DNA of 60,015 nucleotides, the filler included, from Dugesia japonica (Eukaryota), in assembly GCA_001938525.1 (NCBI GenBank). It is 6 parts of 6 records of this genome, joined end to end, with 100 filler letters (N's around TTAATTAATTAA, not from the genome) between each part and the next. Parts side by side here need not be neighbours in the genome. Positions count along the whole stretch, not along the records: positions 20,939 to 31,794 come from MQRL01501996.1; 5 more parts are not named here. The stretch is one strand, 5' to 3'. A program made the position numbers and the translations under genes. This document shows, piece after piece, positions 7,338-60,015 of the stretch. Each line of letters opens with the position of its first letter. The stretch's first letter is position 1. The notes under the pieces were generated by a model, which saw only the letters and a list, made by a program, of their open reading frames with translations, was not told where the DNA came from and searched no databases.

Positions 7338-7800
7338 CTAAATTTTTGTTGATTTTATTTGGAAAATGTTGTAAACTCTCAGCAAGTTTCTCGAATACAG
7401 TAATAAGAAAATATAATAGCAGACATGAACCGAATGTTCGGTGAATTTTTGGATCCCATTTTTGTACCAATACCGGGGTTTGGAGTCAAAGAGTACTGTA
7501 TGATTTTTTTGAAGATCTACTCTATTCTCAAAGCTCCACCATCTGAGAAAATATGTCATTGATCGAAACAGATGAAATTCAGAAGCCCTAAGGGATGACG
7601 AGTAAGCTGAATCCGGTAATATATCAATATTCGATCAAGACTGTTGATAATTTGCATTGATTTCCGTGAGACATGTGGCCCAACATTTTCCGTTCATAAC
7701 CAAACTTTTTTCCGGTTGATTAAATATTTTGCTTTCATATCTTTGTGAATTCTTTCCAACTGTTTTGAGTAAATATCGGAGTTTATACTTTGACCATCTG
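7338..7800 (-). pseudogene. Mariner transposase C-terminal fragment
   Basis: Minus strand reads GQSINSDIYSKQLERI, LPDSAYSSSLRASEFHLFRSM (~HPPYSPDLAPSDYHLFRS) and FDSKPRYWYKNGIQK. Confidence 0.85.
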
Positions 7801-7802
7801 AC

Positions 7803-9110
7803 ATTATTGTATTATTGTAAGGTCATTCTTTCAACATGTATTATTGTAAGGTTATTCTTTTAACATATGATATTACACTGTTCGTCTTTTAACATGCATT
7901 ATTGTAGAGTAATTATTTTAACATGTATAACTGTAGGGTTATTATTTTAACATGTATAATTGTAGGGTTATTGTTTTAACATGTATAATTGTAGGGTTAT
8001 TGTTTTAACATGTATNNNNNNNNNNNNNNNNNNNNNNNNNNNNNNATTGTAGGGTTATTGTTTTAACATGTATAATTGTAGGGTTATTGTTTTAACATGT
8101 ATAATTGTAGGGTTATTGTTTTAACATGCATTATTGTAGGGTTATTCTTTTAACATGTATAATTGTAGGGTTATTGTTTTAACATGTATAATTGTAGGGT
8201 TATTGTTTTAACGTGCATTATTGTAGAGTAATTGTTTTAACATGTATTATTGTAGGGTTATTCTTTTAACATGCATTATTGTAGAGTAATTATTTTAACA
8301 TGTATAATTGTAGGGTTATTGTTTTAACATGTANNNNNNNNNNNNNNNNNNNNNNNNNNNNNNNNNNNNNNNNNNNNNNNNNNGTTATAATTTTAACATG
8401 TATAATTGTAGGGTTATAATTTTAACATGTATTATTGTAGAGTTATTCTTTTAACATTTATTATTGTAGGGTTATTGTTTTAACATGTATTATTGTAGGG
8501 TTATTCTTTTAACATGCATTATTGTAGGGTTATTAGTTTAACATGTATTATTGTAGAGTAATTGTTTTAACATGTATAATTGTAGGGTTATTGTTTTAAC
8601 ATGTACAATTGTAGGGTTATTGTTTTAACATGTATAATTGTAGGGTTATTGTTTTAACATGTATAATTGTAGGGTTATTGTTTTAACATGTATAATTGTA
8701 GGGTTATNNNNNNNNNNNNNNNNNNNNNNNNNNNNNNNNNNNNNNNNNNNNNNNNNNNNNNNNNNNNNNNNNNNNNNNNNNNNNNNNNNNNNNNNNGTTA
8801 TAATTTTAACATGTATAATTGTAGGGTTATAATTTTAACATGTATTATTGTAGAGTTATTCTTTTAACATGTATTATTGTAGGGTTATTGTTTTAACATG
8901 TATTATTGTAGGGTTATTCTTTTAACATGTATAATTGTAGGGTTATAATTTTAACATGTATTATTGTAGAGTAATTATTTTAACATGTATTATTGTAGGG
9001 TTATTATTTTAACATGTATTATTGTAAGGTCATTCTTTAATCATGTGAGTTTACAGTGTCAGTCTTTTAACATGTATTATTGTAGGGTCATTCTTTGAAC
9101 TTGTATTATT
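7803..9110. repeat. 29-bp tandem minisatellite (AACATGTATAATTGTAGGGTTATTGTTTT)n, gapped
   Basis: Period of 29 read directly (e.g. CATG at 7951 and 7980); degenerate edges; three N gaps. Confidence 0.95.
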
Positions 9111-9426
9111 TATCTTATTATTATTTATTTTAATTGCGCACTTTTGGGATCATTTTTCTAAAAAGATTCTTGTTTTCTTAAGGTAAGAAATTAATTATTT
9201 GATGAAATTTATACAGGCAAATTCTATATTAATAGCACGTATTAATAATATATATTTTATACTGTCAAAATGAATGCTATTAAACCGCTTCAGTGAGGGT
9301 TTGAGGAAATAATTATAAATTGATAATTTTAGCCAATAGAAAATAGAGTTAATTCAGTACTAAGTTTCAATCAGTTCTTTTCAATGATAATTATTTATAA
9401 ATAGCAGAGTTGTAGTAGTAACATAA

Positions 9427-20938: not shown

Positions 20939-21251
20939 GGGGGGGTAGAAAAAGTGGAGGTTCAGTGCGGACATGTCTCACTACTCAGAACCAATGAAGA
21001 ATAACCCAGAGAAACAAAAAAGTGAAGATGAAGAAAAAATTAATTGTTGTAACAATAAATGTCAGTATGAACATGAATGGTAAGTTGACTTGGACATTAA
21101 ACCATGACTACTTTTGGTGTTTCGTTTTTGGTTTCTCTGTAAAATAAATTACCTCACATTTATACTTCATTTCTCTTTTCATTAACTTTTATCACTATAA
21201 TTGCTGTCAAATCAATGATTAACTCATCTCGACTTATTAATTTTCTTTCAG

Positions 21252-23005
21252 ATAAAAAATGGAACGAAAGTGGGAAATGCTATTAGACGGGCGTACCGGT
21301 AGATTAATATTCAAACGATATAAGAACCCCATAACCGAGACGCTGGGGTGTTGGTGGACCGTTCTAATCTGTCTACAGAAGAGGCAGAGGACGAGCGACA
21401 ATGGGACGCCCCTGAACGTCGTGCTTTTTATGAATGGAATGGCACCAATCGAGATCGAGAGTTATATCATTCCACTACGGCTTTTCCTCTGGTTAACAGT
21501 TAAGAGCTTCGTACCACCAGTGAGTAGCGCGAAGGCCCTTTGGTGATTCCAGTTTCAACGGCCCGTTTACCACCTTTCTCCAGATTGACCAAATTCGTAA
21601 ATAATACACTTTGGGAGATCCGAAATAGGGAGAATGGCGGTAGCGCAGAAAATGTAGTTTTAGGTGCTAATGACAAAACTATATAACAATTCGTATCTCT
21701 TGATGACCACTTTTAGTGTTAATAAATTATTTTAGTCTTTATTTAAGCATCTTTTGTTAACTCTTGATCTTAATCACCATAATTTAATGGTTTACCAAGC
21801 ACTAAGTAATTGGTTATGATGAGGTTTCAACTTCAATAAAACCGACTAATTATTTATCTCCTCATTGTTTACATATAATATTTTTAATACATTTCTATTC
21901 CAGTTTATTCTTCACTAAATCGTTTGTGGCTCCCACTAAAAAGTGCGAGAAACAAATGAGGACAAGAAGGTGACGTGGGACTTATACTGTCTCGCGAAAC
22001 GTCGATGGAAGACCAATACAGCTACCGCCAAATGTAAGGTATAAAAGAAAATGCATAGCGTTTCGCAAAGAAGCAGAGGCCTCCCATACCCAAGAGAGGC
22101 TTTGGAAAACTTAAATTAAATCATTAACTGAAATTATCCGGTCCCTCCATGACCGAGAAAATAAACTGGTCACAGATATTTTGGCTTTAAGGGAGGCCAT
22201 GCCACTAGAGCCACCAATGGTGGATAAATCCACACAGACTTCACGCCCTTAACTTGATGTTAATCCTTTGGATAATGAAAATACATTATTCTACTATAAT
22301 GGGCCATTCGTGTTTTTCACTTAAATGAGTTTCTTAGTTATTTAATTATCTAAATTAAATTTACATGATTTTCTCTCTCTTAATTACTTCTTTTGTAGTG
22401 CCGAGAATCAGACTTTCTACCAGTTTACGTCGCTGCCAAAAATTATTACTTGAGCGCCATATAAAGAGACAAAACGAAGGCGCGCTTCTACAACACCTTG
22501 CCCAGCGCAACCGGTTAATTAAGAAGTTAGACATCATAGTCAAAAAGCAAGGCGACTTAGCCGAACAGACAAAACAAATACTCCTGCACAAAATCGAGTT
22601 CATAAAGCAATGCATTGTTGACCTTGCCAGTCGTCTTTGGCAAGAAACATGAACAGCGAGGATGATAAAGCTATTTTTGGCTTCATCCCTAATGAGCCAA
22701 CCCAGTGGTTAGACACGGTTGCGCTGGATCAATGTAATCAATTATGTAATCAATTGGAAATAAATTTTTAATTGTAGTACAATATTAATTCGTTTTTGTT
22801 AAATTAAATTATAGGGAGAATATGGAACCCGAAACTAAAGGTATATGAGTGTGTACTTCAAATAAATGGTGGAATTCAACCGCTCTATACTGAAAATCTA
22901 ATTAGGGACATTAGATAAATTATTGAAAGGGCTATTTGAAGGGCGGTTTTCCCACGCCCCACTTTTTTACATCTAACTCAGGTGAGACCCTAACAAAGAA
23001 ACCAA
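21252..23005 (+). pseudogene. Cassette of four degenerate coding blocks of unknown function (copy A)
   Basis: Blocks begin at ~21252, 21904, 22399 and 22815, each after a pyrimidine/AT tract and AG. Peptides align with the inverted copy B. Confidence 0.6.
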
Positions 23006-23049
23006 TAAAATATTCTTTTTAAGTAATTATTTTTAATTATTTTATTATT

Positions 23050-24330
23050 TAATATTGTTGGGGTTCCACCTGAGTTGAATGTAGAAAGATTATAACTGGG
23101 GGAAAAGACAGCCTTCCGGGGACCATTTCAAGAATTAAACTAATGTCCCTAATTAAGTTATCGGTATAGAGCGGATGACTTCCATCTCTAACTTGAAGTG
23201 CACACTCGTATACCTTTATTTTGGGTTCATTATTTTCCTATTATTTTAATTTATCAATCAAATTAACAATAAATTCGAACTAAGATTTATTTTTTGTTAA
23301 TTACATATAATTTAGAGCACCAGAGTCTAACCACTGTGTGGGCTCACCATTCGTAAAATCGAAGGTGATCTCATCGTCGTCACTATTCCAGTGGACCCAT
23401 GTTTCCTGTTTGAGGCGGTTTGATAGGTCGGCGATGTATTGTTGTAAAAATTCAATTTTTTGAGTGAGAATTTGTTTAGTATGTTCAACCACTTCGCCCT
23501 GTGCAAAGGATTCTACCTTTTGTTTCCAAGCACGTTCCTTAGTGTGGGAGGCTTCTACTTCTATTTGGTAACTGCGGCATTTATTTTGATACCGCCTTAT
23601 CTTGGCGTTTGCTGCTGCTACTTCGGCCTCCCATTTTCGTTTCGCTAATTTATAAAGATCCCAAGACATATCTATGTCCTCACTGCGCTCTCGGATTTTT
23701 TTGGAAGGTCCAAATGAACGGTTGCGGAATGAATGTACTAAATAGAATCAGATTTAATTAGATTACTCAATATGGTGATAGTAGACGAAATATCTCCTTG
23801 ATCATAAGTTATAGTTGGACCAGGTCTCTAAGCTAATCGGAAAAAAGTTTTTTAACAATTATAAATAGTTTGCATGAATAAGACTGACAGACAAGGATAA
23901 ATACTCAAAGAAGGAGACACATCTTAACAATTTTCCAGTCAACATTTATTAAAATTAACACTACAAAAAATGGGATATAATAACACAGTTTCAGTTTTCA
24001 GAATTTACTACCGGTTCAGTATTCTCGACATTTGCGAGGTTGGTTGGCTCCCTAATGCCCCAAAGCAAGTTGGTGATAAATGCCTGTACTGCAGGGCGTG
24101 GAGCAGTTGCCCTGTAGGTAAACTAAGTAGCCAAGTTCTGCGTGGGTCAAACCCAATTTAGATGATTCTGGCGTTCACCAAAATTTTGAATGCGTTCCAC
24201 TAATGCTTCTACCGGTGGTAACTTGGTGTGGTCAACTAATATTCCCGCATTTCTATTATATGGGTTGAGGTGACGCCGAAAATTATTCGCCGCGTCCGTC
24301 GTGTATAAATCCTCTCCCGGTTACTTAGTA
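23050..24330 (-). pseudogene. Inverted diverged copy B of the same cassette (includes ORF 23301-23669)
   Basis: WDLYKLAKRKW vs WDLYCLAKRRW; TKQILTQKIEF vs TKQILLHKIEF; KVYECALQ...PLYTDNLIRDI vs KVYECVLQ...PLYTENLIRDI; NPYNRNAGILVD vs NP-HNRDAGVLVD. Confidence 0.7.
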
Positions 24331-24402
24331 AGGTTCCATAGTAATATGGTCTATGATATTTAAAGGTTCCATAGTAATATGGTCTATGATATTTAAAGGT
24401 TC
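24330..24402. repeat. 32-bp tandem repeat (AAGGTTCCATAGTAATATGGTCTATGATATTT)n running into a gap
   Basis: More than two copies visible before the N run. Confidence 0.85.
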
Positions 24403-24924
24403 NNNNNNNNNNNNNNNNNNNNNNNNNNNNNNNNNNNNNNNNNNNNNNNNNNTATGGTCAAAAATGTGTCAAAGATGTCTAATATGTGCTAAATAATATA
24501 AAAAATGTCATGTATTGAATAAGTAAGTAAGTTTAATTGGAATTCCTGACCATTTTGCGAATCTGAGTCTAGTCAACTATTGACGATGATGACTGATTGT
24601 TTTTAAAACAATTGTAGTGGTGTTCAATTATGTCCGAATGTGAACGGATAGAAACACTCCTACTGGAGATGCACATACTGTAATCGAGCTTAGCCTAGTT
24701 AAAACTACGCAAGCTAATCGATAAGCTCAATTATGAACGGACTCGTGTTGGATGCTAAAGACCTTGATGGATTCATTCCGTCGAACTGTACATGTTAGAG
24801 GAGGTAATGCATTGGTATGGAAGGAAAAGAAGACTGAAACAAAGCATGAAAATAATTAATAATTTAAACTAATGTACTTATTAAAAAAAATTAATGTCTT
24901 ATTCTTTAAATACCTTTGAGCATA

Positions 24925-25415
24925 TATATTTAGACTGCCCATACCATGCATAAATATCTTGTAATAATATCTTATAAAATATCAAGACTGAACCATACAT
25001 TGCATAAATATCTTGTAATAATATCTTACAAAATATCAAGACTGCCGATATCATGTAAAATATAGAGACTCCTCCCATCTCATGCAAAATATCAAGACTG
25101 TCCTATCTCTTACATAAATAAATTAATTTAATTAAATTTTTTTAAATTTAATTATATTAAAAAGATTTACCCCCACGTTGAAATTTTAAATTCCTCCCCG
25201 CCCCAACCGCCAAAAGAAATATTAAAATTTTAATTACTCACAAAATTCCACTAATATTAAAACAAAAAATATTTTCATTAATTAAAACAAAAAGTTCCAA
25301 TAATTAAAAAAAATTCCATGAATTCAAACAAAAATACAACTCGATAACTCATACTGTGGCAATGCGCCCCTCTCCACTTCATTAAAAAAAATTCAATTTT
25401 TATTTCTTATACTAT
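24925..25415 (-). mobile_element. Polinton-like terminal/subterminal region, inverted homologue of 51927-52330
   Basis: The reverse complement shares the subrepeats (g)cagtcttgatatttt(g)catg and the segment aattttgtg.g.aatt.aaattt.aa...tttggcgg. Confidence 0.65.
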
Positions 25416-25559
25416 AGAAAAACCGCGATAACCCATAGCAAATCTGTTACTAGTGAATCAGTTGCAATTCTAATAATTCAAAAAAAATTTTGTCATTGAT
25501 ATCGATCGCTTTTGCAACTTAATAGTTAAAATAAGAAAAAATTTCTCTATTGGTCGTGG

Positions 25560-28500
25560 ACATTTAGTGGCACTAATTTGACCAAGATTTTAAATTAAAT
25601 CGGGGAATAGTTTGTTGTTCCGGGTTAATAATGGAGTTATTGAGAATGAATTTTAGCATGATTTAAAACTTTATTTATAAAAATTGTCACAATAAATATT
25701 GTTATAAAGAAGTCCAACTAGAGTTTCTAAAATATATTTTAAGATAATATGACATCATCGGCTTCTATATATATTGTTTTAGAAGCCAGCAGTCTTGGCG
25801 AAATCTATGAAATAATAATACGGGACTAAAACAATTAAATCAACATACCTGACATGCACACATACAATCAAACATAATTAATTTATACGAGCACTGAGAT
25901 GATTTTGTAATCATCTCACATCCCCCTCGTTTTAAATGGCTTTAGCCATACTATATTTCGAACTATCTCTTTACCTTCAAAATTTCTCAATTTAAAGCTA
26001 TTATTGTGTATTTCATTTATAATTTTATAAGGTCCTCCATATCTATTATCCTGTTTATCTCTTATGTCTATTTTTGCCAGTACATTATCACCAATTTTGA
26101 AATGTCTCTGAATTCTTTTATCTTTATTTTAATCATTAATCCTATTAGCACCAATAATAACTTCCTTTCTTTCGCATTGAACATTATTCAATCATTTAAT
26201 ATATTTTAATGAATCTTCGCAAGATGGGATTTCATGCATAAACATTTCTTTGTTTATCTTTTTGCCAAAAACAATTTCTGCTGGGCTACATTTTAAACTT
26301 TTTTGGGTTGTCACATTCAAAGCAAATTCTATATGTTGTAGTGTATCTTCTTAATTTTTATGTAATTGGTCCTTTAAACTAAAAGATAGTCAATCTCTTA
26401 TTGTACGAAATTGTCTCTCTATTTGTCAATTGGCTTGGTGATGAAAGGGACTTGAATAAATAATATCAAAATTAAATTTTTCTGACAAATTTCGTATTAA
26501 ATTTGATTCGAAACCTTTGTCTCTATCTACATGAATTGTTTTACGGGTCCCAAATTTTAAAATCAATTCATTTAAAAGTAATTTGGTGATGGTTTTTGCA
26601 TCTTGTCATGTAACAGCCTTTAAAATCGTATTTTTACTAAATTGATCAATTATAGTAAAAATGTATTTCTTTCAAGTTAATGTGACCTGAAATGGTCCGC
26701 AAAAATCAATAAAAATGCTTTGAAATATTTCATATACATTACTTTTAACCATAATTTCTTTAGTTTTGTGTTGGGTATTTCAACTCAACAAAAGATTTTA
26801 TGGTTCGTATTTGAAATTAATGGATAAATATTTGGTTCGTGATTTTATGGGTGTTGATTTTAACCCTGTGTATATTTAGATACAATACTATATAATCAAT
26901 ATTTTAATCAAAGATATAAATAGGGTTATATCGTGTATGTTGCCATATATAAATAAATAAATAAACACTTTTAAAATGCCCTTTATTTTTTATGTATAAC
27001 AAAATATTTTTCTAACAATAAACCCTTATCAGCTAATTTTAATAAACCAGAATACAGTTTCCCTGAGAGGTCAGTGTCTCTGTAAATAAAACGACAGATT
27101 CAACTAAAAATGTAGCCTGTTTATATAATAATTTTTCTCAACAGCTGCTACCTACTTAAAATACCAATTACAAAAATAAACAATTATTTTTACAGAAATG
27201 AAATACTAGTCACCTTTTTTTCTTTCAATAAAAAATCAATCAAGATTATATTTTCAGTCAATTGTTTTTAGAAAATATTGTCAATTCAAAAAAAATCAAT
27301 AATGTTGAGAAAGTTTTTTTGGTTTTTTTGCACTCAACATAAAAGTGATTGCCTTATGGTCTGTCCTTAAAATGAATTTCTTTCCATATAAGTATTGTTT
27401 AAAATATTGTACAAAGTGAAAAATTGATAACAATTCCTTCCTAGTTATGCAGTATCCAATTTCATGTTTATTCATGCTTTTCGATCCATATGCAATGATG
27501 ACTTCTTTTCCATATTCATCATGTTGTGATAAAACTGCGTCCATTGAATCAAAACTTGCATTTATATCTAAAATAAAAGTTTTCTGAAAATTTGTATGTC
27601 TTAATATTGGTGTTTTTGTGAGACTTTCTGTTAGACTTTTAAATGCTTCTTCACATTTTTCAGTCCAAACTAATTTTACCTCTTTATTCCCAATTGATTC
27701 TTCCAATGGTCTGCCAATTTTCGAATAATCTTTTATGAATTTGCTATAATAATTTGTTAGACCTAAAAAGCTACAAAGATGTTTAATGCATCGAGGTTTT
27801 CCAAAATTGTTTATTGCTTCTATCTTTGAATTATCAGTTTTAATCCCTTCCTTATTTATAATATGACCTAAGAACTTTAATTCTGATACTAAAAAACGGC
27901 ATTTATCTGGATTTATTTTAAGCCCCCATTTCTTAATTCGTAAAAATATTTTTTCAATCCTTTCTTTATGTTCATTTAAATTTTTTGAAAATACTAATAT
28001 ATCAAACCAGAGCTTCTTTCCACATCATGTCTCTAATAATAATTGACATCAATTTTTGGAATGTCGATGGAGCAGCAGCAATACCAAATGGCATTCGGTT
28101 AAAACAATATTGTCCCATTTTAGTCGAAAATGCCATCTTGAGCTAAATATTTTCTTCCAACTACAACTGATAGTATGCATTTCCAAAGTCTATGAATTAA
28201 AAATATTTTGCCCTATATAACGAATCAAGCATCTCTTCAATATTTGGAATTGGAAAAGCAGGTTTTTTATTTATTTAATAATCTGAAATCTAAGCACATT
28301 CTTATTTCATTTGATTCTTTTTTTAACGCATACAATCCGAGAGGTCCATGGGTATTCACACTTTTTTATAATACCATTTTCTTCGAAATTATTTATAATT
28401 TCTACTATTGTTTTTCATAGTGCATCGGCTGCCTTCTAGCTTTCATTAATATCGGTTTGCAATCGGTTTCGATTTTATGTTTTAAAATATCTGTTTTACC

Positions 28501-30060
28501 AATATTTCATTTATTGCTCATAAAATTTCAATATATCTCAGAATGATATCATGAATACTATTATCATCATTTAATTTTAATTTTTAATAATAATATTTAG
28601 GGCACTTCCATTAGCGCATAATACTTGCTTGTTATTAACATTTTTGTTATTAAATTTAATATTTTTAATTTCCTTAGCTATAGTTTTACTCATTACGCTT
28701 ATTTTCGCCCCAGTATCAAATAAAGCATTAAAATAACTTCCATTTAGTTTAAAATTATTAAAAGGTCTACCATCAATGTTACAATAATTAACAACATTCA
28801 AAAATTCAAGCATACAGATATCAGTCAATCTATTTTCATCATTCATATTTTTAAATATAGATTCAATCATTGAATCATTTTCAATCACACCAATACTATT
28901 ATTAAAATTATTCAAACAATCATCATCATACTCAAAAAAACTAGTCCTCATATCATTAATATCATATCTTACACATAATTTATGACTCCTATCCTTTCCC
29001 CGTTGACTGGAGCCTTGGCATTTCCCTAATCATCATTGTTAGCATCTATCTCGTTTGTCTCGTCATCATATAGAGCAGCAACTTGATTTCTTATATTGGT
29101 AAGATAGTATCTGTCATCTCCATGGTATTTGTCATTGCTGTAATCTTTGACTTGGTTTCTAATATTCTTTCTTTTTTTGGTGTCTCCTTGATGGTAACAT
29201 TTATAACTCAGATGTTTTCTTCGATTACAGACAGAACATCGTATATGTGGACAATCACGGCGTAAGTATCCAAATTCATGGTATCCATAACATTGACTGG
29301 ATTCTTCATTTTTATTAAATTGAAAATATTTTCTTTCTTCTCTACTTTCTGGATACATTTGTGTTGTTTGTTGACGCATTGGATGTTGAATTGAATTCAT
29401 TGGTTTCTTTAATGAATATTTCCTTGATTGTTGGATTTCTGGAATTTGTCTTTGATTATTGCTATTTCCAGAGTTGGTTACAATTTGCATTTTGTTGACA
29501 TTTTTAAACTCCAGCATATGATTGTTTATCTATCACATTGATTTGTGCCACTGGTTTATTTTTATCGATACGATGCAAAATATTTTATATATTTGCATGG
29601 AGTTGGACCTTTCTGTACGTTTTTAGTTACAATCTGTTCATCTTCTTTAAATATTTTCCCTCTTAATAAATCTTCAGTCATCTTTGAATTTCATCCTTCT
29701 GTGTTTCATTGTCAAGACAATGCTTCAGGAAAAATGCGATCAATTTAGTACTGGTTAATTTATGTCGCATAACATTTTCAATGTATTTTTCAATTTTTGA
29801 AATGTATACATCCACCGAATCGTTTCTTCTTTTGTAATTTAGGAATTTGATTAGATCGTCAGCTAAATCTAGGCTTTTTAAAAATGCATTTTGCATTCTT
29901 TTTTCATAATCTTCTTCTGTAGTTTCATCAAATTTTATTCTTGACTCTTCGTCTAAATATGCTCTGTTAACAATATTTCGTTGGTTGTTGTCGAGCTGGA
30001 TCATTGAAAAATATTACTCCATGTTCTTCAAATATTCTTCAACATCATATTCTTTGCTGA
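25560..30060 (-). mobile_element. Degenerate Ty3/Gypsy LTR retrotransposon (gag-PR-RT-RH-IN, PPT and 3' LTR)
   Basis: gag with knuckles (29026-30004); protease ALFDTGAKISV; RT RMPFGIAAAPSTFQ with the YxDD partly deleted; RNase H (27296-27706); integrase FIDFCGPF/IIDQFSK/SSPFHHQAN. PPT AAAACGAGGGGGA is followed by TG at 25920. The distal LTR end is uncertain, and there is an unrelated insertion at ~26780-27295. Confidence 0.92.
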
Positions 30061-30134
30061 GGAAGAATTAATTGATTTATTTAAACCAATATAAATAGTA
30101 TTATAAAAAATGCAATAAATTATATATTTATAAA

Positions 30135-30196
30135 ATGCAGTTGATCAATGATGCCGTTTATCAAATTGTTGGTTCAAGCGGAAGCGGTCAACATTA
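30135..30196 (+). pseudogene. 5' stub of a Polinton packaging ATPase
   Basis: MQLINDAVYQIVGSSGSGQ matches MERLRNDAIYQIVGPSGSGK at 52523. Confidence 0.75.
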
Positions 30197-30998
30197 TCTA
30201 TTGTGGCTTAAAAATCAACATTCTAGATGAAAATCGATATTTTATGTGAAAAATAATCACAATGTAGTTGAAAATGTATATGTTGTATGTAAAAAAATGT
30301 ATTATATGAAAATATTTATTTGATTGAATTTAAATTGAAAAATAATTTATTAATCTTTGTTAAATCATAAAAATATAAAGCAGTTAATTGACCTTTGTTA
30401 TAATCAAAAACATGCCTTTGTTATTTTCATGACTAATATTTTTGTAAATGCAACAATATACTACATTGCAGTACTTTAAAATTATTTTATTAACAAATTT
30501 TTTTCATACCACAACTAAATATAATACGTTGTGATATTTTAAGATTTCATCTAAATCTTATTGGTTTGCGACTAAAATTTTGCAATGTGTTTTACTGCAT
30601 TAATTTTGCCACAATTTTCAAAACTAATTTTCAAATCAAGGTAAAATTACTGCCAAATTTTTTGTGTTTCATTTATTTTGATTCATTTTTTATTATTATT
30701 TTAATTTTAGATAAAATGAATAGTGAAAATAAAAGAATTTAACTATGCGAAAAAGATTACATGAAGAAGTAAATTTATTTATAATTTAAAAATTTATTAA
30801 TTTAAAATTATATATATTTAGGTTTTAAACATCGCAGAGGAAAAATATGGAGCAGCTGCTACAGAAAGTATTTGAAAATTAATGTAATAATGTGTTAACA
30901 ATAAATGTTTTACTAGATAATTGTTTTGTCTTATTTACTTTTTNNNNNNNNNNNNNNNNNNNNNNNNNNNNNNNNNNNNNNTAGTAAAATAATAAGTG

Positions 30999-31755
30999 TC
31001 TCTTATTATAAATAGTTTTTTAATTATGAATACAATAGGGCTTGCAATATAGATGGATTACAGCAACAAATACTTAATAATTTTGATAAATGCAATAGGG
31101 TTGCAACAGGAGCCTGGAAATTTTATTAAATATAATAGGTATACATTTTGCATGTTTACTGTATAATTAATACAAGTTAACTGTACAAATAAACTTTACA
31201 TTACACAGTAACTATGTAAATTACCCTTATACAGTTATAAAACTATTTACTTATAAGTTTGTATATAAATAATACAAGAAAGAAACAAAATTATTATTCA
31301 ACTGTATTTATTTAACAATGATAAAATTACATTGCATATGTGACTTTTAAATTGATTCATGTTGACAATAATTTTGAATTGTAAAATAAAAATTTTATTT
31401 TACGAAAACTACTGCTTTTATACTCACNNNNNNNNNNNNNNNNNNNNNNNNNNNNNNNNNNNNNNNNNNNNNNNNNNNNNNNNNNNNNNNNNNNNNNNNN
31501 NNNNNNNNNNNNNNNNNNNNNNNNNNNNNNNNNNTTATATAAATAAGACATACTTTTCAAACTAAGATCACTTTTAAAAACTTTAATAATGAATTATTCA
31601 GATATGGATGGCTTTTATTCCAAAACTACAATCATAAAACTTAACCTTTATGGTTGTTATGTAAATAATACAAGGTAACTATGTAAATAATATACTCATA
31701 GACTTATAAAATTGTATATTGTATTCATAATTAAAAAACTATTTATAATAAGAGA
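30999..31755. repeat. Perfect 39-bp inverted repeats (30999-31037 and 31717-31755)
   Basis: TCTCTTATTATAAATAGTTTTTTAATTATGAATACAATA and its exact reverse complement. Confidence 0.85.
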
Positions 31756-31794
31756 TATAGACTTATAAAGTAAATTTGAAAGGCCGAAATGTAT

Positions 31795-34545: not shown

Positions 34546-34956
34546 TTACTTCAATTAATTTTGTGTTTGTACACACAAGTTTATATTAATAAGATTTAGA
34601 TGAATNNNNNNNNNNNNNNNNNNNNNNNNNNNNNNNNNNNNNNNNNNNNNNNNNNNNNNNNNNNNNNNNNNNNNNNNNNNNNNNNNNCCCTTATACAATC
34701 AACGAATTCGAGAATTTTAATCATCAATTTACTTGAAATGTCATTAGTAATTGATATACCTATTTTGTTTGGTAGTATTAGTTAAAAATTAACTCTTCTT
34801 TAATTTCTGAAAATTCCTAATTGCAATAGTTTATAATTGTTTATAACAAATCTTTGAATTTTAAATGTGAATTTATCGATTTCAAGTATAAATATATTAA
34901 CGTTACTTGTTTAAATATTATTTAAGCATAAGTTAAAAATTTTAAATATTATTACA

Positions 34957-36507
34957 ATGAGTAAATCAATCATTACATTACAATTAGGAAATTATGCTAA
35001 TTTTATCGGAAGTCATTATTGGAATCTTCATGAATTCTCATTTAAAAATTTGAATACACATATTGATAATGATGTGAATTATTATGAAGGATTAACGTTA
35101 AACAACGAAGTTACATTCACTCCTAAAGTTTTATGTTGGGATTGGAAAGAAAATTTGGGTGCTAGAATTGTAGATGACATTTATGAAGAAATTGAAAGTC
35201 ATGGAGACACTAATTGTCAAACACGAAGAGATATAAACAGTTTAAAGGCTGATTCTTGTAATGGGAAGCTTGAAAAACACACTGGATTTACTGATGAAGA
35301 ATTAAAAGTTAATAAAACCAATAAAATAATTAATAAAGAACATACGGAATGGAATGAATATTTATATGCAAGATATCATCCAAAATCTCTAACTAAACTG
35401 CCAAAATTGTATCAAGAGTTCGACAGTGGTAATTTTCGATACTTTTTACAAGGTCAACAATTGACCGAAAGCAAGGAATATAATGAGTGTATGATTGAAC
35501 AGACGCGATATTTTGTTGAAAAATGCGATATGCTGCAAGGATTTCAGGTAATGTGTGATTCAAATGACGGTTTTAGTGGAGTTGGTATGAACTTTTTAAC
35601 TCATTTATCAGAAGAATATAGGAAGAACATTTTGTCCTTTCCAACAAGCTCTTCGACAGATGGTAACGATGACGATAATCTTTTCAATAAAATATTTTTA
35701 TATAATGAAATGAATTCTAAATCAGTATTTTGGTCACCAATTAGCTGTTTTAATGACAAAAATAAGCCCGTAGAAATTGCTAATGTCAATTATAATCAAT
35801 CTAAATACCACACTAGTGCAATTCTAGCTGTTGCACTTAAATCTTTATTATTACCTTGTTCTTTTAATAACTCGAATTATTCTTTATCAGATTACAGTGA
35901 TGTTATAGATAGGCAAAACAACAAAATGGCTTCATTAGCTTTATCTTTACCATTTCCTATTAAGCATAATGAAACCCTAGAAAAATCATTGTTAAATCTT
36001 TTACCGGAAAATTGTTATTCTGTGTTGAATCCTTATTCTGAAGAAATCGGAAAGTTTAATTCAGTTATTGGAAGCATTTTCGGTATCGATGAAACTCGTC
36101 AGAAATATGTGAATCGAACATCTAACGGTATTTACGATCATTGTTCAAATGTATGTGAAATGATGGAACAATATGTCAGTAATACTTGTTTGGCTAAAAA
36201 ATCTCGATTTTTCAGTTCAACTGATAAAATTAATTTGCAAAAACCGTTTCCTAATATATTTTCATCGATTATCGATAAATTTGCTGGCGAATTATTACCT
36301 GTTACTAATGAGAAAATATTTTGGCACTGTCCAAAGTCTATTCCTCTTTCGACGATGTTGTATTCCAGTGATAATAATGAGAGCTTGCTGAGAATTTATG
36401 AGTCAGCTAAATCATCGTTCAAAAAAAGAAAGATCTCGACTTGTTTATTACAAATGGAGGCGGATTCAATCACTGAAGCTATCGAAAATTTTCGAGATAT
36501 TATTTAA
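34957..36507 (+). CDS. MSTO1: Protein misato homolog (tubulin/FtsZ-like), single exon
   Basis: IITLQLGNYANFIGSHYWN, FTPKVLCWDWKENLG, RYFVEKCDMLQGFQVMCDSNDGFSG, YHTSAILA; intact 516-aa ORF. Confidence 0.95.
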   Translation: MSKSIITLQLGNYANFIGSHYWNLHEFSFKNLNTHIDNDVNYYEGLTLNNEVTFTPKVLCWDWKENLGARIVDDIYEEIESHGDTNCQTRRDINSLKADSCNGKLEKHTGFTDEELKVNKTNKIINKEHTEWNEYLYARYHPKSLTKLPKLYQEFDSGNFRYFLQGQQLTESKEYNECMIEQTRYFVEKCDMLQGFQVMCDSNDGFSGVGMNFLTHLSEEYRKNILSFPTSSSTDGNDDDNLFNKIFLYNEMNSKSVFWSPISCFNDKNKPVEIANVNYNQSKYHTSAILAVALKSLLLPCSFNNSNYSLSDYSDVIDRQNNKMASLALSLPFPIKHNETLEKSLLNLLPENCYSVLNPYSEEIGKFNSVIGSIFGIDETRQKYVNRTSNGIYDHCSNVCEMMEQYVSNTCLAKKSRFFSSTDKINLQKPFPNIFSSIIDKFAGELLPVTNEKIFWHCPKSIPLSTMLYSSDNNESLLRIYESAKSSFKKRKISTCLLQMEADSITEAIENFRDII

Positions 36508-37129
36508 TTTTAAAACAATTTAATATTTGTTCATGAAATTTTTTGATTTTGTTATACTTTTAAATGTAAATATTTTTGTTTTGTCTGTATTTTTCGTGTT
36601 ATANNNNNNNNNNNNNNNNNNNNNNNNNNNNNNNNNNNNNNNNNNNNNNNNNNNNNNNNNNNNNNNNNNNNNNNNNNNNNNNNNNNNNNNNNNNNNNNNN
36701 NNNNNNNNNNNNNNNNNNNNNNNNNNNNNNNNAAAGTTTAATAAGTAAAAAATTGCATTAAAATACAAATCTTAATTTATTAATACTATCTTTTTCCGAA
36801 AATAAGACACTGTCTTACTTTCCTTTTTTAGTTCAAAATACGTGCTAGGGCTTATTATTGGGGTTGTCTTATTTTTCAAGATATATTCGTGTAATATTTT
36901 TTAAAATTTATTCGAATTCAGTCATTTTGAAGATGGTCATAACTTATAAGAAAAAGGAATCTGTATACCAATTGCTTATTTAAATTAAGCAGAAATAAAA
37001 TTTTTATTAAAGTGATAATAGGGCTATAGCCCCATGGCACAAGCCTTTTGGGCGGCAATTTTTATTTGTGATATATATTTTTTTGTTATTATTAGTTTTA
37101 TAAAAATTCATTCTTCATTTAATTAGTTT

Positions 37130-37528
37130 TTACGTATTTTAAAAAAAATATAAATGAAGACATAATTAGAAAGCATGCTGCAAAGTTGTGCGAAATGTAT
37201 CAGAAAGATTTAGGAAATAACTTTATCGAAGAATGTCTACATTTTAAATATGTGAATTTATTGGAAAATATATCTACTGCAGAACTTAGTTTAAAGATAG
37301 AAATCGAGCAGAAAATTGAATCTTCATTTCCAAACGTGGTCACAGCACTGCGCATCTTTTTAACTATCGCCACTACAAACTGCAATGGTGAAAGATCATT
37401 TTCAGCAATAAAAAGAATAAAAAATTATTTACGATCTTCTTTGGGACAGAGCAGATTCAATGATTTAAGTATTTTATCCATTGAGAGAAATTTATTTGAT
37501 AACTTAAATACGAGTGATATTATTGATC
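37130..37528 (+). pseudogene. hAT transposase C-terminal dimerisation domain, copy 1
   Basis: FPNVVTALRIFLTIATTNCNGERSFSAIKRIKNYLRSSLGQSRFNDLSILSIE. Confidence 0.9.
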
Positions 37529-38059
37529 NNNNNNNNNNNNNNNNNNNNNNNNNNNNNNNNNNNNNNNNNNNNNNNNNNGAATTCTATAAAACGATCAATG
37601 GTTAAGTCCAACAATTATTCTCGTAATAATTGCAATTGTAAAAAAATATATTTATACTGTTAAAAGTTTAATAAGTAAAAAATTGCATTAAAATACAAAT
37701 CTTAATTTACTAATACTATCTTTTTCCGAAAATAAGACACTGTCTTACTTTCATTTTTTAGTCCAAAATACTTGCTAGGGCTTATTATCGGAGTTGTCTT
37801 ATTTTTCAAGATATATTCGTGTAATATTTTTTAAAATTTATTCGAATTCAGTCATTTTGAAGATCGTCATAACTTATAATACATAAGAAAAAGTATACCA
37901 ATTGCTTATTTAAATTAAGCAGAAATAGAATTTTTATTAAAGTAATAATAGGGCTATAGCCCCATGGCACAAGCCTTTTGGGCGGCAATTTTTATTTGTG
38001 ATATATATTTTTTTGTTATTATTAGTTTTATAAAAATTCATTCTTCATTTAATTAGTTT

Positions 38060-38484
38060 TTACGTATTTTNAAAAAAATATAAATGAAGACATAATTAGA
38101 AAGCATGCTGCTAAGTTGTGCGAAATGTATCAGAAAGATTTAGGAAATAACTTTATTGAAGAATGCCTACATTTTAAATATGTGAATTTATTTGAAAATA
38201 CTGAAAATATATCTACTGCAGAACTTAGTTTAAAGATAGAAATCGAGCAGAAAATTGAATCTACATTTCCAAACGTGGTCACATCACTGCGCATCTTTTT
38301 AACTATCGCCACTACAAACTGCAATGGTGAAAGATCATTTTCATCAATAAAAAGAATAAAAAATTATTTACGATCTTCTTTGGGACAGAGCAAATTCAAT
38401 GATTTAAGTATTTTATCCATTGAGAGAAATTTATTTGATAACTTAAATACGAGTGATATTATTGATCAGTTTGCCAAAGAATAA
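38060..38484 (+). pseudogene. hAT transposase C-terminal domain, copy 2 (part of a ~0.93-kb tandem duplication, 36733-37528 and 37661-38468)
   Basis: Same motifs as copy 1; differs by SNPs and a 9-bp indel. Confidence 0.9.
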
Positions 38485-42470: not shown

Positions 42471-43407
42471 TCTTTATAAATCACTTGATAATGTTTTTAA
42501 GCGTTTTAACAGTTTCCTGTTTCATTTGTACTTTCGATAATAACAATAACAATAGTATTAAGACTTGTGAACACTCTCTGAACATTCTAGAATTTCCAGA
42601 TTGATGGATGGTTAGTAGAAATGATTCCTTGAATATTATCACCCCACCATATTATTATTCGTTTTTTTCCATTTTCCGAATTTTCCATTGGTTGGTGCAC
42701 CATTCGAAACACAAATAAATTTACGAATTTCTTTATTATAATTAAACTTCCTGGAGAATTACGATTTTTTATTATTTTTTAATAATCTTTACAACATATC
42801 AAAAATATCAAATTATTAGACCGGAACCCAGCGCACCAATGTAGCGAATTTTCCAAATTTCTTTTTTTTGCGAGGTAGGGCCTTAACAATTTATTTATCA
42901 AACAGGTTAGAAACCATTAAATTAGATTTTTTAAAATTATATTAAAAGCATGGATATTTGAGGAAATTTTCTCCAAATACTTTATACTTTTTGTCTGGGT
43001 ACCGTTTAGACAATTAACTCTTTTATCACCTATTTTACCTGTTTTAAAAAATTGTGGTGTTCTAACCTATTACTACTACTAACCTACTCATAATTTCTAG
43101 TTTAAATCATAATAAATCGATATTTCAACTCTGGAGACTTTTTATCTTAATTTTACACTCGGAGACTTTTTGTCCTGTAAACGTATTTAAATATAGAGTT
43201 CATGGAAATTTTTGATGTTTTAATATTTTTTACAACGAAAAAACACTAAATTATTAGACCGGAGACCAGCGCACCAATGTAGCGAATTTTTCAATTGTTA
43301 GAGCACCGTTCGAAACAAGAATAATATACACGAGTAAATTTATGAATTTAAAATGGAAAAAAGTCGGTGAAATAAATATAAAAATATCCGAATTCAATCA
43401 ATCTTAC

Positions 43408-44628
43408 CTTCAGAGTAGAATAAATCCGATCAACGATTGACTCAGCGATGAGATTCTTAATCGATAAATTAGATATATCCAAAATTTTCTCCGTGTATTT
43501 ACTGTCAGCACAAATAGCGGGCATATGCCTGACTTTGAGTGGTCTTTTCGAGTCATCTTCGTCAGTACAAATCACAATACTATGTCTCGGTCGTTGTAAA
43601 TATTTTTCACTTCTATGCCAATAAGAAAATGTTAACTTAGTTCCTCTCGTATAACGGACATCGTAAATCGGAATTCCATGTGCATAACGCTGATAATCAT
43701 TGATTTGTTCGTGAAGTACTTCCAATTGTAAACTGATGCTCATAGAATGCATCATATCATAGAGATAATACAACGATGAACTGCTACTCATATTATGAGA
43801 ATGTAATCTCGCTTGGATTATTTCATGCATTGCTTTCAATTGATTAATATGAACCAATGATCGACCCCGACAAACATTGTTTCCTTTAACCAGAAAGTTA
43901 ATATTCAACAGTTTCCATGGATGATCAAAATGGTCAGACATTAGAGTACAGGTTACCGTAAATTCATCCGGAACAGTAAATGTAACTCTACCATTCGAAA
44001 TATCAATATTTCTCATCCTATAGGGAATTTTAGAATTGCTTAAACGTATTCGTAAAATCCGATTAAGCTCATCAAACATTCGAATTTTATCGAGTTTGTT
44101 AATTCTTTGTGATTTTAAAACGGAAAATTTGATAATATTGGGTAATCTAGAATATGTTTTTGTAGCAAATATGTCAGCGGAAATAATAGGCAATATATTT
44201 TGTAGTCTAGCATATGGTAATCTATCTCTTGCCAATATTGAAAGATCTTCGGCAGTATTCATTAAAAACAAACTTTGTTCATCCAATAAATTGGATATTT
44301 TCTCACATTTATCAACTTTCTGTGCTGATGGAGTCCACTTATTTAACGCTTGAAGTCTGATTAAAAGATATCTCGTTCTGTTTAGAAATTTTGCTATTTC
44401 TGTTTTTTTATCAGCATCATCTTTGCTAGGTAGTAAATCAACTAACTGATGAAAATCTGTATAGGTTTTTAAAGCGACGTGATTAATCATAACACCCATT
44501 GAAACAGCCTTGGGTTTGTTTGGTAACTGAGGATTATGAATAGGCATATTTGCAGGAAATGATGAAAATTGTTTAATTTGATTTGCATTATTAGGTGAAA
44601 ATATTTTCATCGGACTACCAAAACTCAT
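43408..44628 (-). CDS. MED14: Mediator subunit 14, first coding exon (gene presumably continues beyond the scaffold)
   Basis: LLIRLQALNKW, ARDRLPYARL, TYSRLP, NGRVTFTVPDEF, PWKLLNINFLV, SLQLEVLHEQ; donor AAG|gtaaga at 43408/43407. Confidence 0.93.
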
Positions 44629-44889
44629 TTTCGTTTTATTAATTTAATATTAATAAAATGATAGAAAATATTTGATTTATGATTTTACGATGAATATTAA
44701 AACAAATATTATTTTTTTAAAAACAAAATATTTTAAGTTATAACTATTATTTTATGAAAATTCTAAATCCGAATTAAAAATTAAATTTTATTAATATAAA
44801 ATAAATTCTATTAATTTTTTTAATGTATATATAAATAAAAAAGCTTCATTTTACTTAGAAATAATTTAAGAAAAACTACAATAAAGAAT

Positions 44890-52450: not shown

Positions 52451-52522
52451 TCCATACATATTGCATTAACTTTCAATTATAAGCAATGTAATAAAGTATG
52501 AATAAATTTTAAAAAAAATAAG

Positions 52523-53122
52523 ATGGAGAGATTAAGAAATGATGCAATCTATCAAATTGTTGGTCCTAGTGGTAGTGGGAAAACTTTGTTTGGATGTCAA
52601 TTATTGAAATTAAAGTTATTCAAATCTAAATTTAAAAACATATACTGGCATAGAAGTGCAGATGAGGAGCATGGATTGATTAAATCTGAATTTTGTAATA
52701 CTAAAATGAAAATCATAAATGGTTTTGATTCTAATTGGACCAAAAGATTAAGACCAGGTTATGTTATTGTTGTTGATGATCTGTATCAGGAGGCAAACAA
52801 AGAAAAAGATTTCAATAATTTATTCATAAAAATATCGAGACATCGTAATGTTACTGTGCTATTTATTAATCAAAATCTATTTCATCAAGGAGGTAGTCAT
52901 AGAACCTTCAATTTAAACGTTCAATATTTGATTCTATTCAAAAATCCTAGAAATCAGACTAGAAATAACAGACAATTTTTTATTGAATTATTTCAAGATG
53001 CAACAGAAAAACCACATGGATATATATTTCCTGACTTTACACAACACTGCCCAGATAATTATAGGGTGAGAACAGATATATTCAACCCTAATGGTATCAC
53101 AGTATATAAACAAAACAGGTAA
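52523..53122 (+). CDS. Polinton/adintovirus A32/FtsK-like packaging ATPase (possibly with a small deletion)
   Basis: Walker A GPSGSGKT, Walker B VIVVDDL, SRHRNVTVLFINQNLF, LFKNPR, PHGYIFPDF, RVRTDIF. Confidence 0.92.
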   Translation: MERLRNDAIYQIVGPSGSGKTLFGCQLLKLKLFKSKFKNIYWHRSADEEHGLIKSEFCNTKMKIINGFDSNWTKRLRPGYVIVVDDLYQEANKEKDFNNLFIKISRHRNVTVLFINQNLFHQGGSHRTFNLNVQYLILFKNPRNQTRNNRQFFIELFQDATEKPHGYIFPDFTQHCPDNYRVRTDIFNPNGITVYKQNR

Positions 53123-53142
53123 TTTTTATAATATTATATAAA

Positions 53143-53430
53143 ATGGTAAAGTTTAAGAAAATTGTTGTTGATTCAGTTACTGATGGTGATGTTGTTAAAC
53201 AACGAAAAATGGTGAAAATTGAAGAAAAAAACAAAGCAATCTTAATAAACAAAATCTCACCAAAAATCAATCTTATAATAAAAAGTATGCAAATAAGAAA
53301 GAAATTGAATAAGTTTAAAAAACATTCAAAAGTAGTGGAAAGAAACTGGATATCACATAAGAAAACATATACAAATAAGAAAAATGAATTGAATAAGTTT
53401 AAAAAACTTGCAAAAATTACTGGAAAATAA
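53143..53430 (+). CDS. Small Lys-rich basic protein, putative virion core protein
   Basis: Very basic 95-aa ORF; a positional counterpart exists at 33892-34170. Confidence 0.55.
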   Translation: MVKFKKIVVDSVTDGDVVKQRKMVKIEEKNKAILINKISPKINLIIKSMQIRKKLNKFKKHSKVVERNWISHKKTYTNKKNELNKFKKLAKITGK

Positions 53431-53502
53431 CTGGAATTGATGAATGTAAAATGGATATCATTATAAACAATTAACTGGTATGTCTTTGTTATTGAAATAA
53501 AA

Positions 53503-53824
53503 ATGAAATTAGAAAGAAGTATTCTGTTTTTTACTGCTTTGATTAAATCATCAAAATTAATGACAATGAGAATTTTGGACTCATTTCTACCAAATCTTAT
53601 GGATGATTTACTTGAGATTATTGTAAATATTGTTCGTGGTAATGTAAATTTGACCAAAACTAGAAAGGAAACATTGAAAAAACCAAAAAACCTTACTATT
53701 GCTTGTAAATACAAAAAATAGGAGATTGATGAGGAAAGTAATACGAGATAATCAAGTTGGTGGATTTATAGTAGCATTACTTCCAATTAGATTGGTTGCA
53801 TTGGGCTTAACTCAATTCAAATAA
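53503..53824 (+). pseudogene. Polinton PW/adenovirus pX-like small protein, frameshifted near 53715
   Basis: LLEIIVNIVRGNV...RKVIRDNQVGGFIVALLP, containing an xGG/F adenain-type cleavage site. Confidence 0.7.
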
Positions 53825-53917
53825 ACAATTTGTTCTTTTGACCAATATATTAATAAACAATGATTAGATTGCAATCATTACCTAATTTTGACTTAAAGTT
53901 AGCATCGAATTGTTGTA

Positions 53918-54724
53918 ATGGGAAAACTAAAGACAATATGGGCGGATCCAAAAAACCTAGCAGGTTTTCAAGTTGTAGAAAAGTTGATAAATGCAGGTCA
54001 AAAAATGAAAAAAAAGACAAATAAGTGGTTATCTGGGCAGCTAGCGTACAGCCTAAACAAGCTAATATTGAAAAGATTTCCAACAAGAGCATATAAAACA
54101 TATGGTATTGATGATTTATGGCAAATGGATTTAATGGAGATGATTCCATATTCAAAAATGAATAAAGGTTACAAGTATATTTTGACATTTATCGATAAAT
54201 TCAGTAGATTTGCAAGAACTGTTCCTGTTAAATAAAAATATGCTAATGATATTGAACCAGCAATAGAGTCAATGTTTAAAAATGGACATCCAGATAATTT
54301 ACAAACAAATTTGGGTAAGGAATTCTACAATTCTAAGGTTAAACAACTTATAAATAAATTAAAAAATAAACCATTATAGTGTATTCTTTCAGTATAAAGA
54401 TGCACATGTAGAATGATATAATTGCACATTGAGAGATGCATTGAAAAGTACTTTGTACATATTGGTAATAAGACTTGGATAAATGTTATTCCGAAACTTA
54501 TTCAGTTTTATAATCATTCTGGTTATAAGGGATTAAATGGTGCAAGACTGGTTAATGTAAGTACAAACAATCAATTAAATTTATGGTTATCACGTAAACA
54601 TTCAAAAGCAAATGAAAAACCAAAGTATGAAGTTGGCGATCATGTGAGAATCTCGAAAATATTAGTTTCCCCATTTATCAAGAATTTCAATAGTAATTGG
54701 AGTGATGAACAAATATCAAGATGA
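53918..54724 (+). pseudogene. Polinton retroviral-like integrase (disrupted)
   Basis: DDLWQMDL, YKYILTFIDKFSRFA, LQTNLGKEFYN, YNHS, KPKYEVGDHVRISK, NWSDE; stop at 54233 and frameshifts. Confidence 0.92.
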
Positions 54725-56950: not shown

Positions 56951-58199
56951 AAAAACAGTAATATAATAATGTCACGACTAATTACTTACATTATGTAATG
57001 CATACAAATGTGTGCCGTCGCATATTTACATTAGAAAAATACAAAAATACTTATGTATATTTCATTAATAACATGATATGTAAATTGTACAGATTAAACG
57101 CATTAATAGTTATAGATAGATTGTATAGATTCCCTTGAATTATTTCCCTTTATATGATGTAATTATTAAATTCATTGACCTTATTGGATGATTATAATAA
57201 ATGAATTAGTTTTTCATAAATCTAATAACTTTCTAGTGACATGAAGTAAATATTTAGAAATAAATACAAGGCTTCTGGTAACTTTTAAAAATATATAGGG
57301 ACCTTTGGTAACTTTTTACAAAAATTACCGAATCTCTGGTAATCTTTGAAATATTTTAAGGGCATTTACTATACATATGAGTTATTTCCCCTATGTTTTA
57401 AACAGGATTTTTAAAATGTTTCTGACGTCTAATAACCTTTTGAAAAAATAACAGGATCAATGGTAAATCTTTTGAAATAGTTAAATGACGTCCGCTAAAA
57501 TTTTAAATTTATTTTACGGACATCCGGTAACTTTTTGATTAACATCAACCTAATTTTATAACAATTGATTAATAAACTCATTAATTTATATAACTACTCT
57601 TTAAATCCCTTATGTATACCTCATACACTTTATATAAATCGTATACAAAGCCTATGATAACTTTAGTAGAAGAAGACATTCACTCTGGCTCACTTGTGAA
57701 ATTTAGTCTTTTATGTAATCAACACACACACAATATACATGACATATGAACTATTACGTAATCGCCCTTATGGAACTTGACATTACATAAATCAATACAA
57801 AATTACTATGTTACATAATATATTCATCATTATCATCATTACTATTGATAACTATAATTATTATTATTGTCATTATTGATCTTATTTTAGGATTATCTGT
57901 CTTTTTTGTTTCGTTTTTTATCACTACCACACCTATAACTTACATATTACTTATTAAAATATTTTAACTCTACAAATGTATATTTCCTATTATTAGTATC
58001 ACTATGAATAAATCTAAGACGTCATTATACAATAAATAATATTTCTTACAATAACTATTTCTAATCTTATCATTATATCAAACATAATATACAGTCTGTT
58101 ACATTAAATTGTCCAGTACAATCAACATTGACAAAAACCATCGAAATTTGACCAATAACATCAACTATATTTTCACGTGGACAACAAAAAAAAAGTATA

Positions 58200-59715: not shown

Positions 59716-60015
59716 ATAGTAAGTGTTTAACTGCGGTCGTAATGACATTTGATTGTCGAAGAAGAAGAAGAAAAAGAAGAAGACTAAATGATGATTACTT
59801 AACAATTTCTTGTAATTTTCTGTTTAAATGATGAAATAAATTTTGTTATATATTTTGTGTTATTTATTATATATTAAGTTTAATATAATGATAAGATTAG
59901 AAATAGATATTTTAAGAAATATTATATATTGTATAATGACTTCTTAGATTTATTCATAGTGATACTAATAATAGGAAATATACATTTGTAGAGTTAAAAT
60001 ATTTTAATAAGTAAT

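Follow-up and report, generated by a model that had tools for sequence, protein, structure and literature searches.

The DNA examined here is a window of 60,015 nt from the planarian Dugesia japonica (assembly GCA_001938525.1); it consists of AT-rich DNA in pieces of roughly 10 kb with 100-nt linkers between them, and its subject of interest is a pair of inverted repeat units that face each other tail to tail. The pair makes up the whole of contig 20939–24402, at the start of the scaffold piece 20939–31794 (MQRL01501996.1). Arm A (20955–22995, plus strand) is a unit of approximately 2,040 bp, with TG at its left and ...AACA at its right, and is likely to be the 3' long terminal repeat (LTR) of a retrotransposon. 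A purine tract (20939–20954, plus strand; 15 of 16 positions), which is a candidate polypurine tract, lies at the contig edge directly before the TG. Arm B (23056–24330, minus strand) is a diverged copy of the same unit with the same ...AACA end, and its start disappears into a satellite and an assembly gap. Between the two ...AACA ends is an AT-rich spacer, likely to be host DNA, that was predicted to be about 60 bp long near 23020 and measures exactly 60 bp (22996–23055).

Reading frames of the two arms

The arms had been described as carrying collinear homologous blocks in opposite orientation, and local DNA alignment against 200 shuffles agreed with this, giving z-scores of 6.3 for block 1, 15.2 for block 2, 17.9 for block 3 and 29.3 for block 4 with its tail. 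The arms were 49–82% alike across the blocks, while the spacer between blocks 1 and 2 failed to align (z = -0.2) and a stretch of about 420 bp in arm A (22126–22547) had no counterpart in arm B. This arm A-specific stretch, the splice-like signals and the repeat nature of the unit go beyond the original prediction. The peptides quoted there were all present in the six-frame translation, although that of block 1 is spread over two frames in arm A and over three in arm B. That the arms are no assembly mirror was also confirmed: contigs with 0–1 differences, from runs of up to three studies, covered 21301–21621, 21843–22094 and 22335–22771 in arm A and 23214–23454, 23425–23684 and 23655–24340 in arm B. 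An assembly mirror or sequencing error was rejected on these grounds, and the decay of the arms is real because such contigs from other runs cover most of the breaks. None of the pieces among the 0–1-difference contigs listed spanned the junction at 22996–23055.

All features of arm A lie on the plus strand. It opens with a short leader (20973–21085), containing ATGs in all three phases and ending with a GTAAGT donor-like site at 21080. Open reading frame (ORF) 1 (21252–21686) has its own ATG at 21259, 7 nt past an acceptor-like AG, and is interrupted by a frameshift near 21330 and two internal stops. ORF2 (21904–22252) follows an acceptor-like AG that is kept in both arms; it predicts a long helix with a C-terminal heptad, and has frameshifts near 21940 and 22037 and one internal stop. 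ORF3 (22399–22771) opens with TG directly after an acceptor-like AG and is broken near 22650 by a 10-nt gap relative to arm B; its product has a basic N-terminal half (18 K+R in 84 residues), a zipper-like heptad and an acidic tail. The products of ORF2 and ORF3 are predicted to be helical or zipper-like, and no transmembrane stretch was found in the ORF products. Block 4 with its tail (22815–22995) is a candidate R/U5 region or fourth ORF; it contains three stops, is conserved at the DNA level and has a CAG/GTGAG donor-like site at 22982. Within the first 50 bases of the arm, a nested hairpin was predicted at 20959–21003 (-8.9 kcal/mol, without a shuffle control). This region holds the palindrome GGACATGTCT, which resembles a p53 half-site, one half-site being expected by chance.

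Arm B, on the minus strand, retains fragments of the same order. Its ORF1 (23991–24330) is truncated at the 5' end, with frameshifts near the start and two internal stops, and is cut off by a 33-bp tandem repeat (24330–24402) that leads into a gap of Ns and whose tandem joints were found in RNA reads. Block 4 (23049–23237) has a frame that is open for 62 codons, lacks an initial start codon and overruns the end of the unit. Blocks 2 and 3 form the open ORF of 122 aa that had been reported (23301–23737; the frame 23301–23747 is open for 148 codons, 122 of them from the first Met). The in-frame fusion of the two blocks therefore exists, but as the product of an internal deletion: opposite-strand joints in other copies (22128/22133 to 23502/23505/23547) run an arm B-like block 2 into the stretch otherwise seen only in arm A, and because of this the ORF is read as a deletion chimera of ORF2 and ORF3. 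A single-sequence AlphaFold model of the chimera (mean pLDDT 73, pTM 0.37) consisted of helices at residues 17–82 and 85–115, with a break at the fusion point.

Codon positions were counted after the DNA alignment, over eight ungapped stretches amounting to 184 codons; the 5' part of block 1, its 3' half and also the beginning of block 2 were left out, their alignment being unreliable. Differences between the arms at positions 1, 2 and 3 numbered 54, 44 and 102 (chi2, p = 5.5e-7) and pN/pS was 0.34 (bootstrap 0.27–0.43), this ratio being given in place of dN/dS since synonymous sites are near saturation. Four control frames produced values of 1.19–1.50. The antisense frame that shares third positions produced 0.46 and had 11 stops where the proposed frame had 2; codon pairs containing a stop numbered 11–27 across the five other frames. 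The third-position excess was significant for block 1 (p = 0.016), block 2 (p = 0.031) and block 3 (p = 1e-5), and pN/pS was 0.31 for ORF1 (29 codons), 0.47 for ORF2 (66 codons) and 0.23 for ORF3 (60 codons). ORFs 1–3 were kept under purifying selection; a ratio near 1, named at the outset as the contrary result, was absent. Block 4 showed no significant excess (82% identity, differences 3/5/8, p = 0.13), and is therefore not demonstrated as coding; it may be a cis-acting stretch rather than a gene. Thus, the claim that the arms diverged while coding holds for blocks 1–3 but is not borne out for block 4. Likeness rose toward the junction, pS being 0.26 in block 4 and 0.66–1.07 upstream. The facing pair is useful in that it places two lineages side by side and exposes the selection.

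No homolog was recognised, as the original prediction had stated, in Pfam, PHROGs, PDB, IMG/VR, ESM Atlas or two large protein collections, nor did any clear match to a known host gene or transposable element protein appear. None of 11 pieces exceeded the Pfam cut-off, the best E-values were 0.016 in PHROGs and 0.49 in PDB, and the best ESM Atlas score (0.86) was no usable match; the search for ORF1 covered Pfam and PHROGs only. In word-based protein searches, none of 19 candidates was accepted at E 0.1 for the arm B ORF (protein lengths 81–259), nor was the single candidate for the arm A ORF2 piece (protein lengths 55–177). Three results were discarded. A HMMER search of the arm B ORF against 1.84 billion representatives returned one match (E = 4.5e-20), a nematode tandem-repeat protein that summed 14 weak matches of 24.6 bits each; one of 15 stretches matched in IMG/VR, antisense to a phage tail gene, and a metagenome motif scan returned three GC-rich loci by the motif only, both of which were taken as chance. 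Rfam gave three matches, all far below the gathering score, and no tRNA was found. These blanks are weak evidence of novelty because the host is poorly represented in protein collections: misato in the same window (34915–36507) had a best match of 58% to an unnamed protein and 25–30% to named ones, with no near-identical entry. The literature searches made here turned up no account of rows of ORFs in planarian LTRs.

Small orphan ORFs arranged in rows, with AATAAA between one and the next, are typical of Mavericks and endogenous DNA viruses. In both arms ORF1 stops near the same place and AATAAA then follows, and AATAAA recurs at the same place after block 3 (22759, 23291), this being a common motif in AT-rich DNA. 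The arms could on this resemblance be an accessory-gene stretch of a Maverick/Polinton or other endogenous DNA virus, and a Maverick-like remnant (A32 ATPase, rve) is present at 52.5–54.7 kb of the window. However, that remnant is on another scaffold piece and has no sequence in common with the arms; there was no true match in IMG/VR or PHROGs, and no polB, integrase, ATPase or capsid gene of the Maverick kind on the 10.9-kb scaffold piece. Two fragments with the same end base would also be unexpected of internal pieces, and this origin is considered very unlikely. A Penelope-like element was rejected: neither strand has a CTGANGA...GAAA hammerhead core, Rfam gave no credible match, and the arms, being 49–82% alike with a signal of selection, do not resemble inverted arms made from one template.

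A dispersed repeat with a fixed end

The inverted pair matched 4,341, 5,229 and 4,543 contigs in three DNA runs at 80% likeness. Summed depth ranged from 13 to 89,162 in run X1, against 6–9 at exact-match pieces; the ratio to single-copy depth, which is an order of magnitude only and not a copy number, was about 10 for block 1, 30–130 for block 3, about 200 for block 4, and in the thousands at three short places, namely the first 110 bases, a motif within ORF2 and the junction bin. The first bin of arm A and the junction bin were among the three deepest. The ORF2 motif (22133–22170, about 38 nt) is common to very many copies and was the main site of RNA reads within the arms; possibly it acts in cis as a signal that overlaps ORF2. 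In run X8 (organism B), 389 contigs contained short exact pieces at a depth of 2–4, representing either a relative or carry-over. No further copies of the arms were found within the window. The arms are copies of an abundant, dispersed repeat, very probably a mobile one, rather than a one-off cassette. The description of an undescribed, partly decayed cassette or family survives for blocks 1–3, in their unrecognised family, coding divergence and decay. The whole is a high-copy dispersed repeat and, because it also has a fixed end, most likely belongs to a mobile element.

The ...AACA ends of the two arms (22995 and 23056) are in register: 24 of 30 positions match on the inner side of the ends and 8 of 30 on the outer side. 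Among the joints with intervening letters, four of the eight listed had an end at 23050–23056 followed by unlike flanks. These shared ends and joints define a fixed element end with variable neighbours. The tail-to-tail pair is probably the result of two separate insertions from diverged lineages rather than one inverted duplication, and the facing arrangement is likely to be incidental. Were the facing pair itself the unit, as a family-wide inverted architecture or a selected double-stranded RNA hairpin, other copies should not depart at 23050–23056 into unlike flanks as they do. The region 22740–23310 folds strongly (-227 kcal/mol, z = -21), but this is expected of any inverted repeat. The rise in likeness toward the junction also speaks for such a unit, and gene conversion could be its cause. 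Against it, the conservation of block 4 and its tail is family-wide, as these match about a hundred-fold more depth than single-copy pieces. With few RNA reads besides, this reading is highly improbable. As a point on the same side, a rough inference from 1e4 ends in about 8e8 bases is that chance alone should give a few near-abutting pairs of this kind.

LTRs end in TG...CA, and such termini, as for Ty3/gypsy elements, were found here in the ...AACA of both arms and the TG at 20955 that follows the purine tract, this left end having been inferred rather than mapped. A polypurine tract stands directly before the 3' LTR (PMC12789967). Four such purine tracts occur in the window over both strands, and a G-rich purine run is present upstream of 20954 in other copies also (10 RNA reads, agreement 0.61). 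No TGG primer site follows either right end, as would be expected of 3' or solo LTRs. Arm A looks like a 3' LTR because of the purine tract at its left and the lack of a primer site at its right. Both outer ends of the pair touch assembly gaps or satellite.

Any mobile element could have a fixed end and a high copy number, and no reverse transcriptase is linked to the arms; the unit might be a DNA transposon or a rolling-circle element that carries genes, either Helitron/Helentron-like or of another type ending in TG...CA, with ORFs that were captured or element-specific. A 13-nt imperfect inverted match joins the start of arm A to its tail, but 112 of 2000 shuffles reached its score, such repeats were not significant in general, and neither the purine tract nor the TG is explained by this origin. 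Helitrons are defined by 5'-TC and 3'-CTRR termini with a 3' stem-loop (PMC4344730). Here the end is AACA, not CTRR, and the terminal folds are weak and different between the arms (-2.8 and -3.6 kcal/mol), so Helitron termini were rejected. An element of any of these kinds is considered unlikely. A hairpin noted by eye near the right end did not reappear in the folding predictions.

Splice-like signals and transcripts

Four strict acceptor-like sites were identified on the sense strand of arm A (21252, 21584, 21904 and 22399), three of them at the starts of blocks 1–3. Both arms retain the AG that precedes block 2, unlike the spacer upstream of it, which fails to align. The leader's GTAAGT has a background of 0.16 per kb per strand in the window, and further GTGAG sites occur in arm A at 21520, inside ORF1, and at 22982, in the tail. 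After their acceptors, ORF2 and ORF3 are in one and the same phase (phase 1), and no ATG is common to them at that point. A start codon split as A/TG was not supported, both donor-like sites being preceded by G rather than A.

The blocks could instead be exons of one spliced gene, from a mobile element or an expanded host family, with the arms as pseudogene paralogs. They are GC-rich (0.43–0.46) between AT-rich spacers (0.14–0.28) and begin at acceptor-like sites, and the GTAAT that closes block 3 in each arm might serve as a weak donor, in which case blocks 3 and 4 would form a two-exon gene; CERV, the accessory gene of Cer1, has five exons (PMC10309623). But no strict GTRAG donor closes blocks 1–3 in either arm, ORF1 possesses an ATG of its own and ends at much the same place in each arm, with AATAAA after it, and block 3 is likewise followed by AATAAA at the same place in both, albeit in AT-rich DNA where the motif is common. 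Nor would a host gene be expected to show a fixed end, such extreme depth and so few RNA reads. This explanation is rather unlikely, and the arrangement of sites suggests that one leader spliced to several acceptors fits better than one multi-exon gene. RNA on the pair amounted to 1.2–13.6 reads per million, without a control gene for scale; the reads were mostly partial fits to the ORF2 motif, the ends and the satellite, with four at at least 99%, and no pile-up of read ends was seen in the RNA runs. An index of runs named no RNA run that contains the stretch, which carries no weight as evidence.

A candidate LTR with proposed accessory genes

The explanation preferred here is that the arms are decayed, diverged LTRs of about 2 kb from a Ty3/gypsy-type retrotransposon, which inserted separately 60 bp apart. 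The balance tips slightly in favour of the arms being such LTRs; for the explanation as a whole, including the ORFs, a probability of about 0.5 is given. The ORFs would belong to U3 within the LTR and be expressed from the 3' LTR of the full element, as three, perhaps four, accessory proteins of its own per unit. Alternative splicing would place the short leader onto the acceptor before each ORF, in the manner of MMTV sag/rem or errantivirus env, a step that is possible but somewhat short of even odds. By analogy with Cer1 CERV or Rev, the putative zipper products of ORF2 and ORF3 might be small, oligomerising regulators of the element's RNA or transcription, although such a role is doubtful. 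Block 4 and the tail would form the cis-acting R/U5 end, and both copies would be dead remnants in chance juxtaposition.

Several observations count against the explanation. No gag, pol or integrase is linked to the arms, and a Ty3 remnant on the same scaffold piece, with its own purine tract and TG near 25920, has no homology to them; the purine-tract criterion was set post hoc and missed the tract of that neighbour. The terminal inverted repeats were not significant (112, 245, 1362 and 861 of 2000 shuffles reached their scores), the last being the comparison between the arm A start and the arm B end, where 8 of 10 positions match. The ORF2 motif, although internal, is as deep as the element ends. 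Given an acceptor-like background of 0.78 per kb, the rough chance of three in four sites falling at block starts is 5e-5, but this is too small as the block starts were partly defined by acceptors; with ATGs in all three phases of the leader, a phase match to it is non-discriminating. No TATA box, transcription start or poly(A) site was located, and no TATA-like site is shared by the arms. Four RNA runs from three studies produced only 17 of 10.5 M, 163 of 13.6 M, 14 of 11.6 M and 179 of 13.2 M reads on the pair, and no splice joint was listed among them.

Known systems resemble parts of the proposal. The giant gypsy elements of planarians, Burro/GYPSM1, likewise have thousands of copies, accessory ORFs and, with an internal part of up to 25 kb and a total above 30 kb, long LTRs by implication, in what is likely the same host group; their accessory ORFs, however, are internal or within a polyprotein, LTR ORFs go unmentioned in the excerpt of that account, and their named domains have no match in the arms (PMC6431247). 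MMTV sag/rem and HIV-1 nef are encoded in the U3 of the 3' LTR and made from spliced RNA, but these are single cases of one ORF and one exon in vertebrate retroviruses, where the arms have three or four in a row; Sag, unlike the arm products, is a membrane protein, and there is no homology (PMC12789967). Cer1 CERV of C. elegans is a lineage-restricted Ty3/gypsy accessory protein, spliced and with a leucine zipper, as proposed here, whereas the products predicted from the arms are of about 110–140 aa and no homology was found (PMC10309623); Cer1 is sister to a flatworm errantivirus (PMC13524379). The sORF1 and sORF2 of the Drosophila MDG1 group are also small accessory ORFs of LTR elements that homology searches miss, and the poly(A) site that separates them is counted as a likeness; unlike the arm ORFs, they are located upstream of gag and carried on unspliced RNA, and sORF2 encodes a transmembrane fusogen (PMC11952523). 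Errantivirus env is spliced to a short leader or AU dinucleotide, its start being created by splicing; ORF3 similarly opens with TG after an acceptor-like AG, but the donor-like sites here are preceded by G, not A (bioRxiv 10.1101/2023.08.03.551782). Knockdown of the piRNA pathway de-represses LTR elements in planarians (PMC8532177).

Other features were noted in the window. Sharing its scaffold piece and strand with arm B, 25600–30013 (minus strand) is a decayed Ty3/gypsy element with a gag-like frame and remnants of protease, RT/RNase H and an integrase-like domain. A Maverick/adintovirus-like remnant at 52502–54724 comprises an A32-type ATPase, a basic ORF and broken integrase frames. Misato (34915–36507, plus strand) is one open frame of 530 codons, very diverged from its named homologs, and 43348–44643 (minus strand) is a MED14 frame of 431 codons. 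At 57946–60015, inverted arms of 164 nt (91%) flank a frame of 188 codons (59149–59715) with no Pfam match, which is possibly a DNA transposon. There is a tandem 930-bp duplication of a hAT C-terminal fragment at 36733–38484, and a 29-bp satellite array at 7714–9162.

It is tentatively suggested, at distinctly less than even odds, that the arms represent an old and large animal Ty3/gypsy lineage in which the LTR serves as an accessory cassette, with three to four conserved U3 genes, a common leader and two zipper regulators of a new family. Coding sequence within LTRs is known from a few vertebrate retroviruses, with one gene each; if the suggestion is true, a row of genes in an invertebrate LTR would be the organisation of a complex retrovirus reached separately. 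New protein families would have been hidden by repeat masking, and every solo LTR would scatter a self-contained row of genes through the genome.

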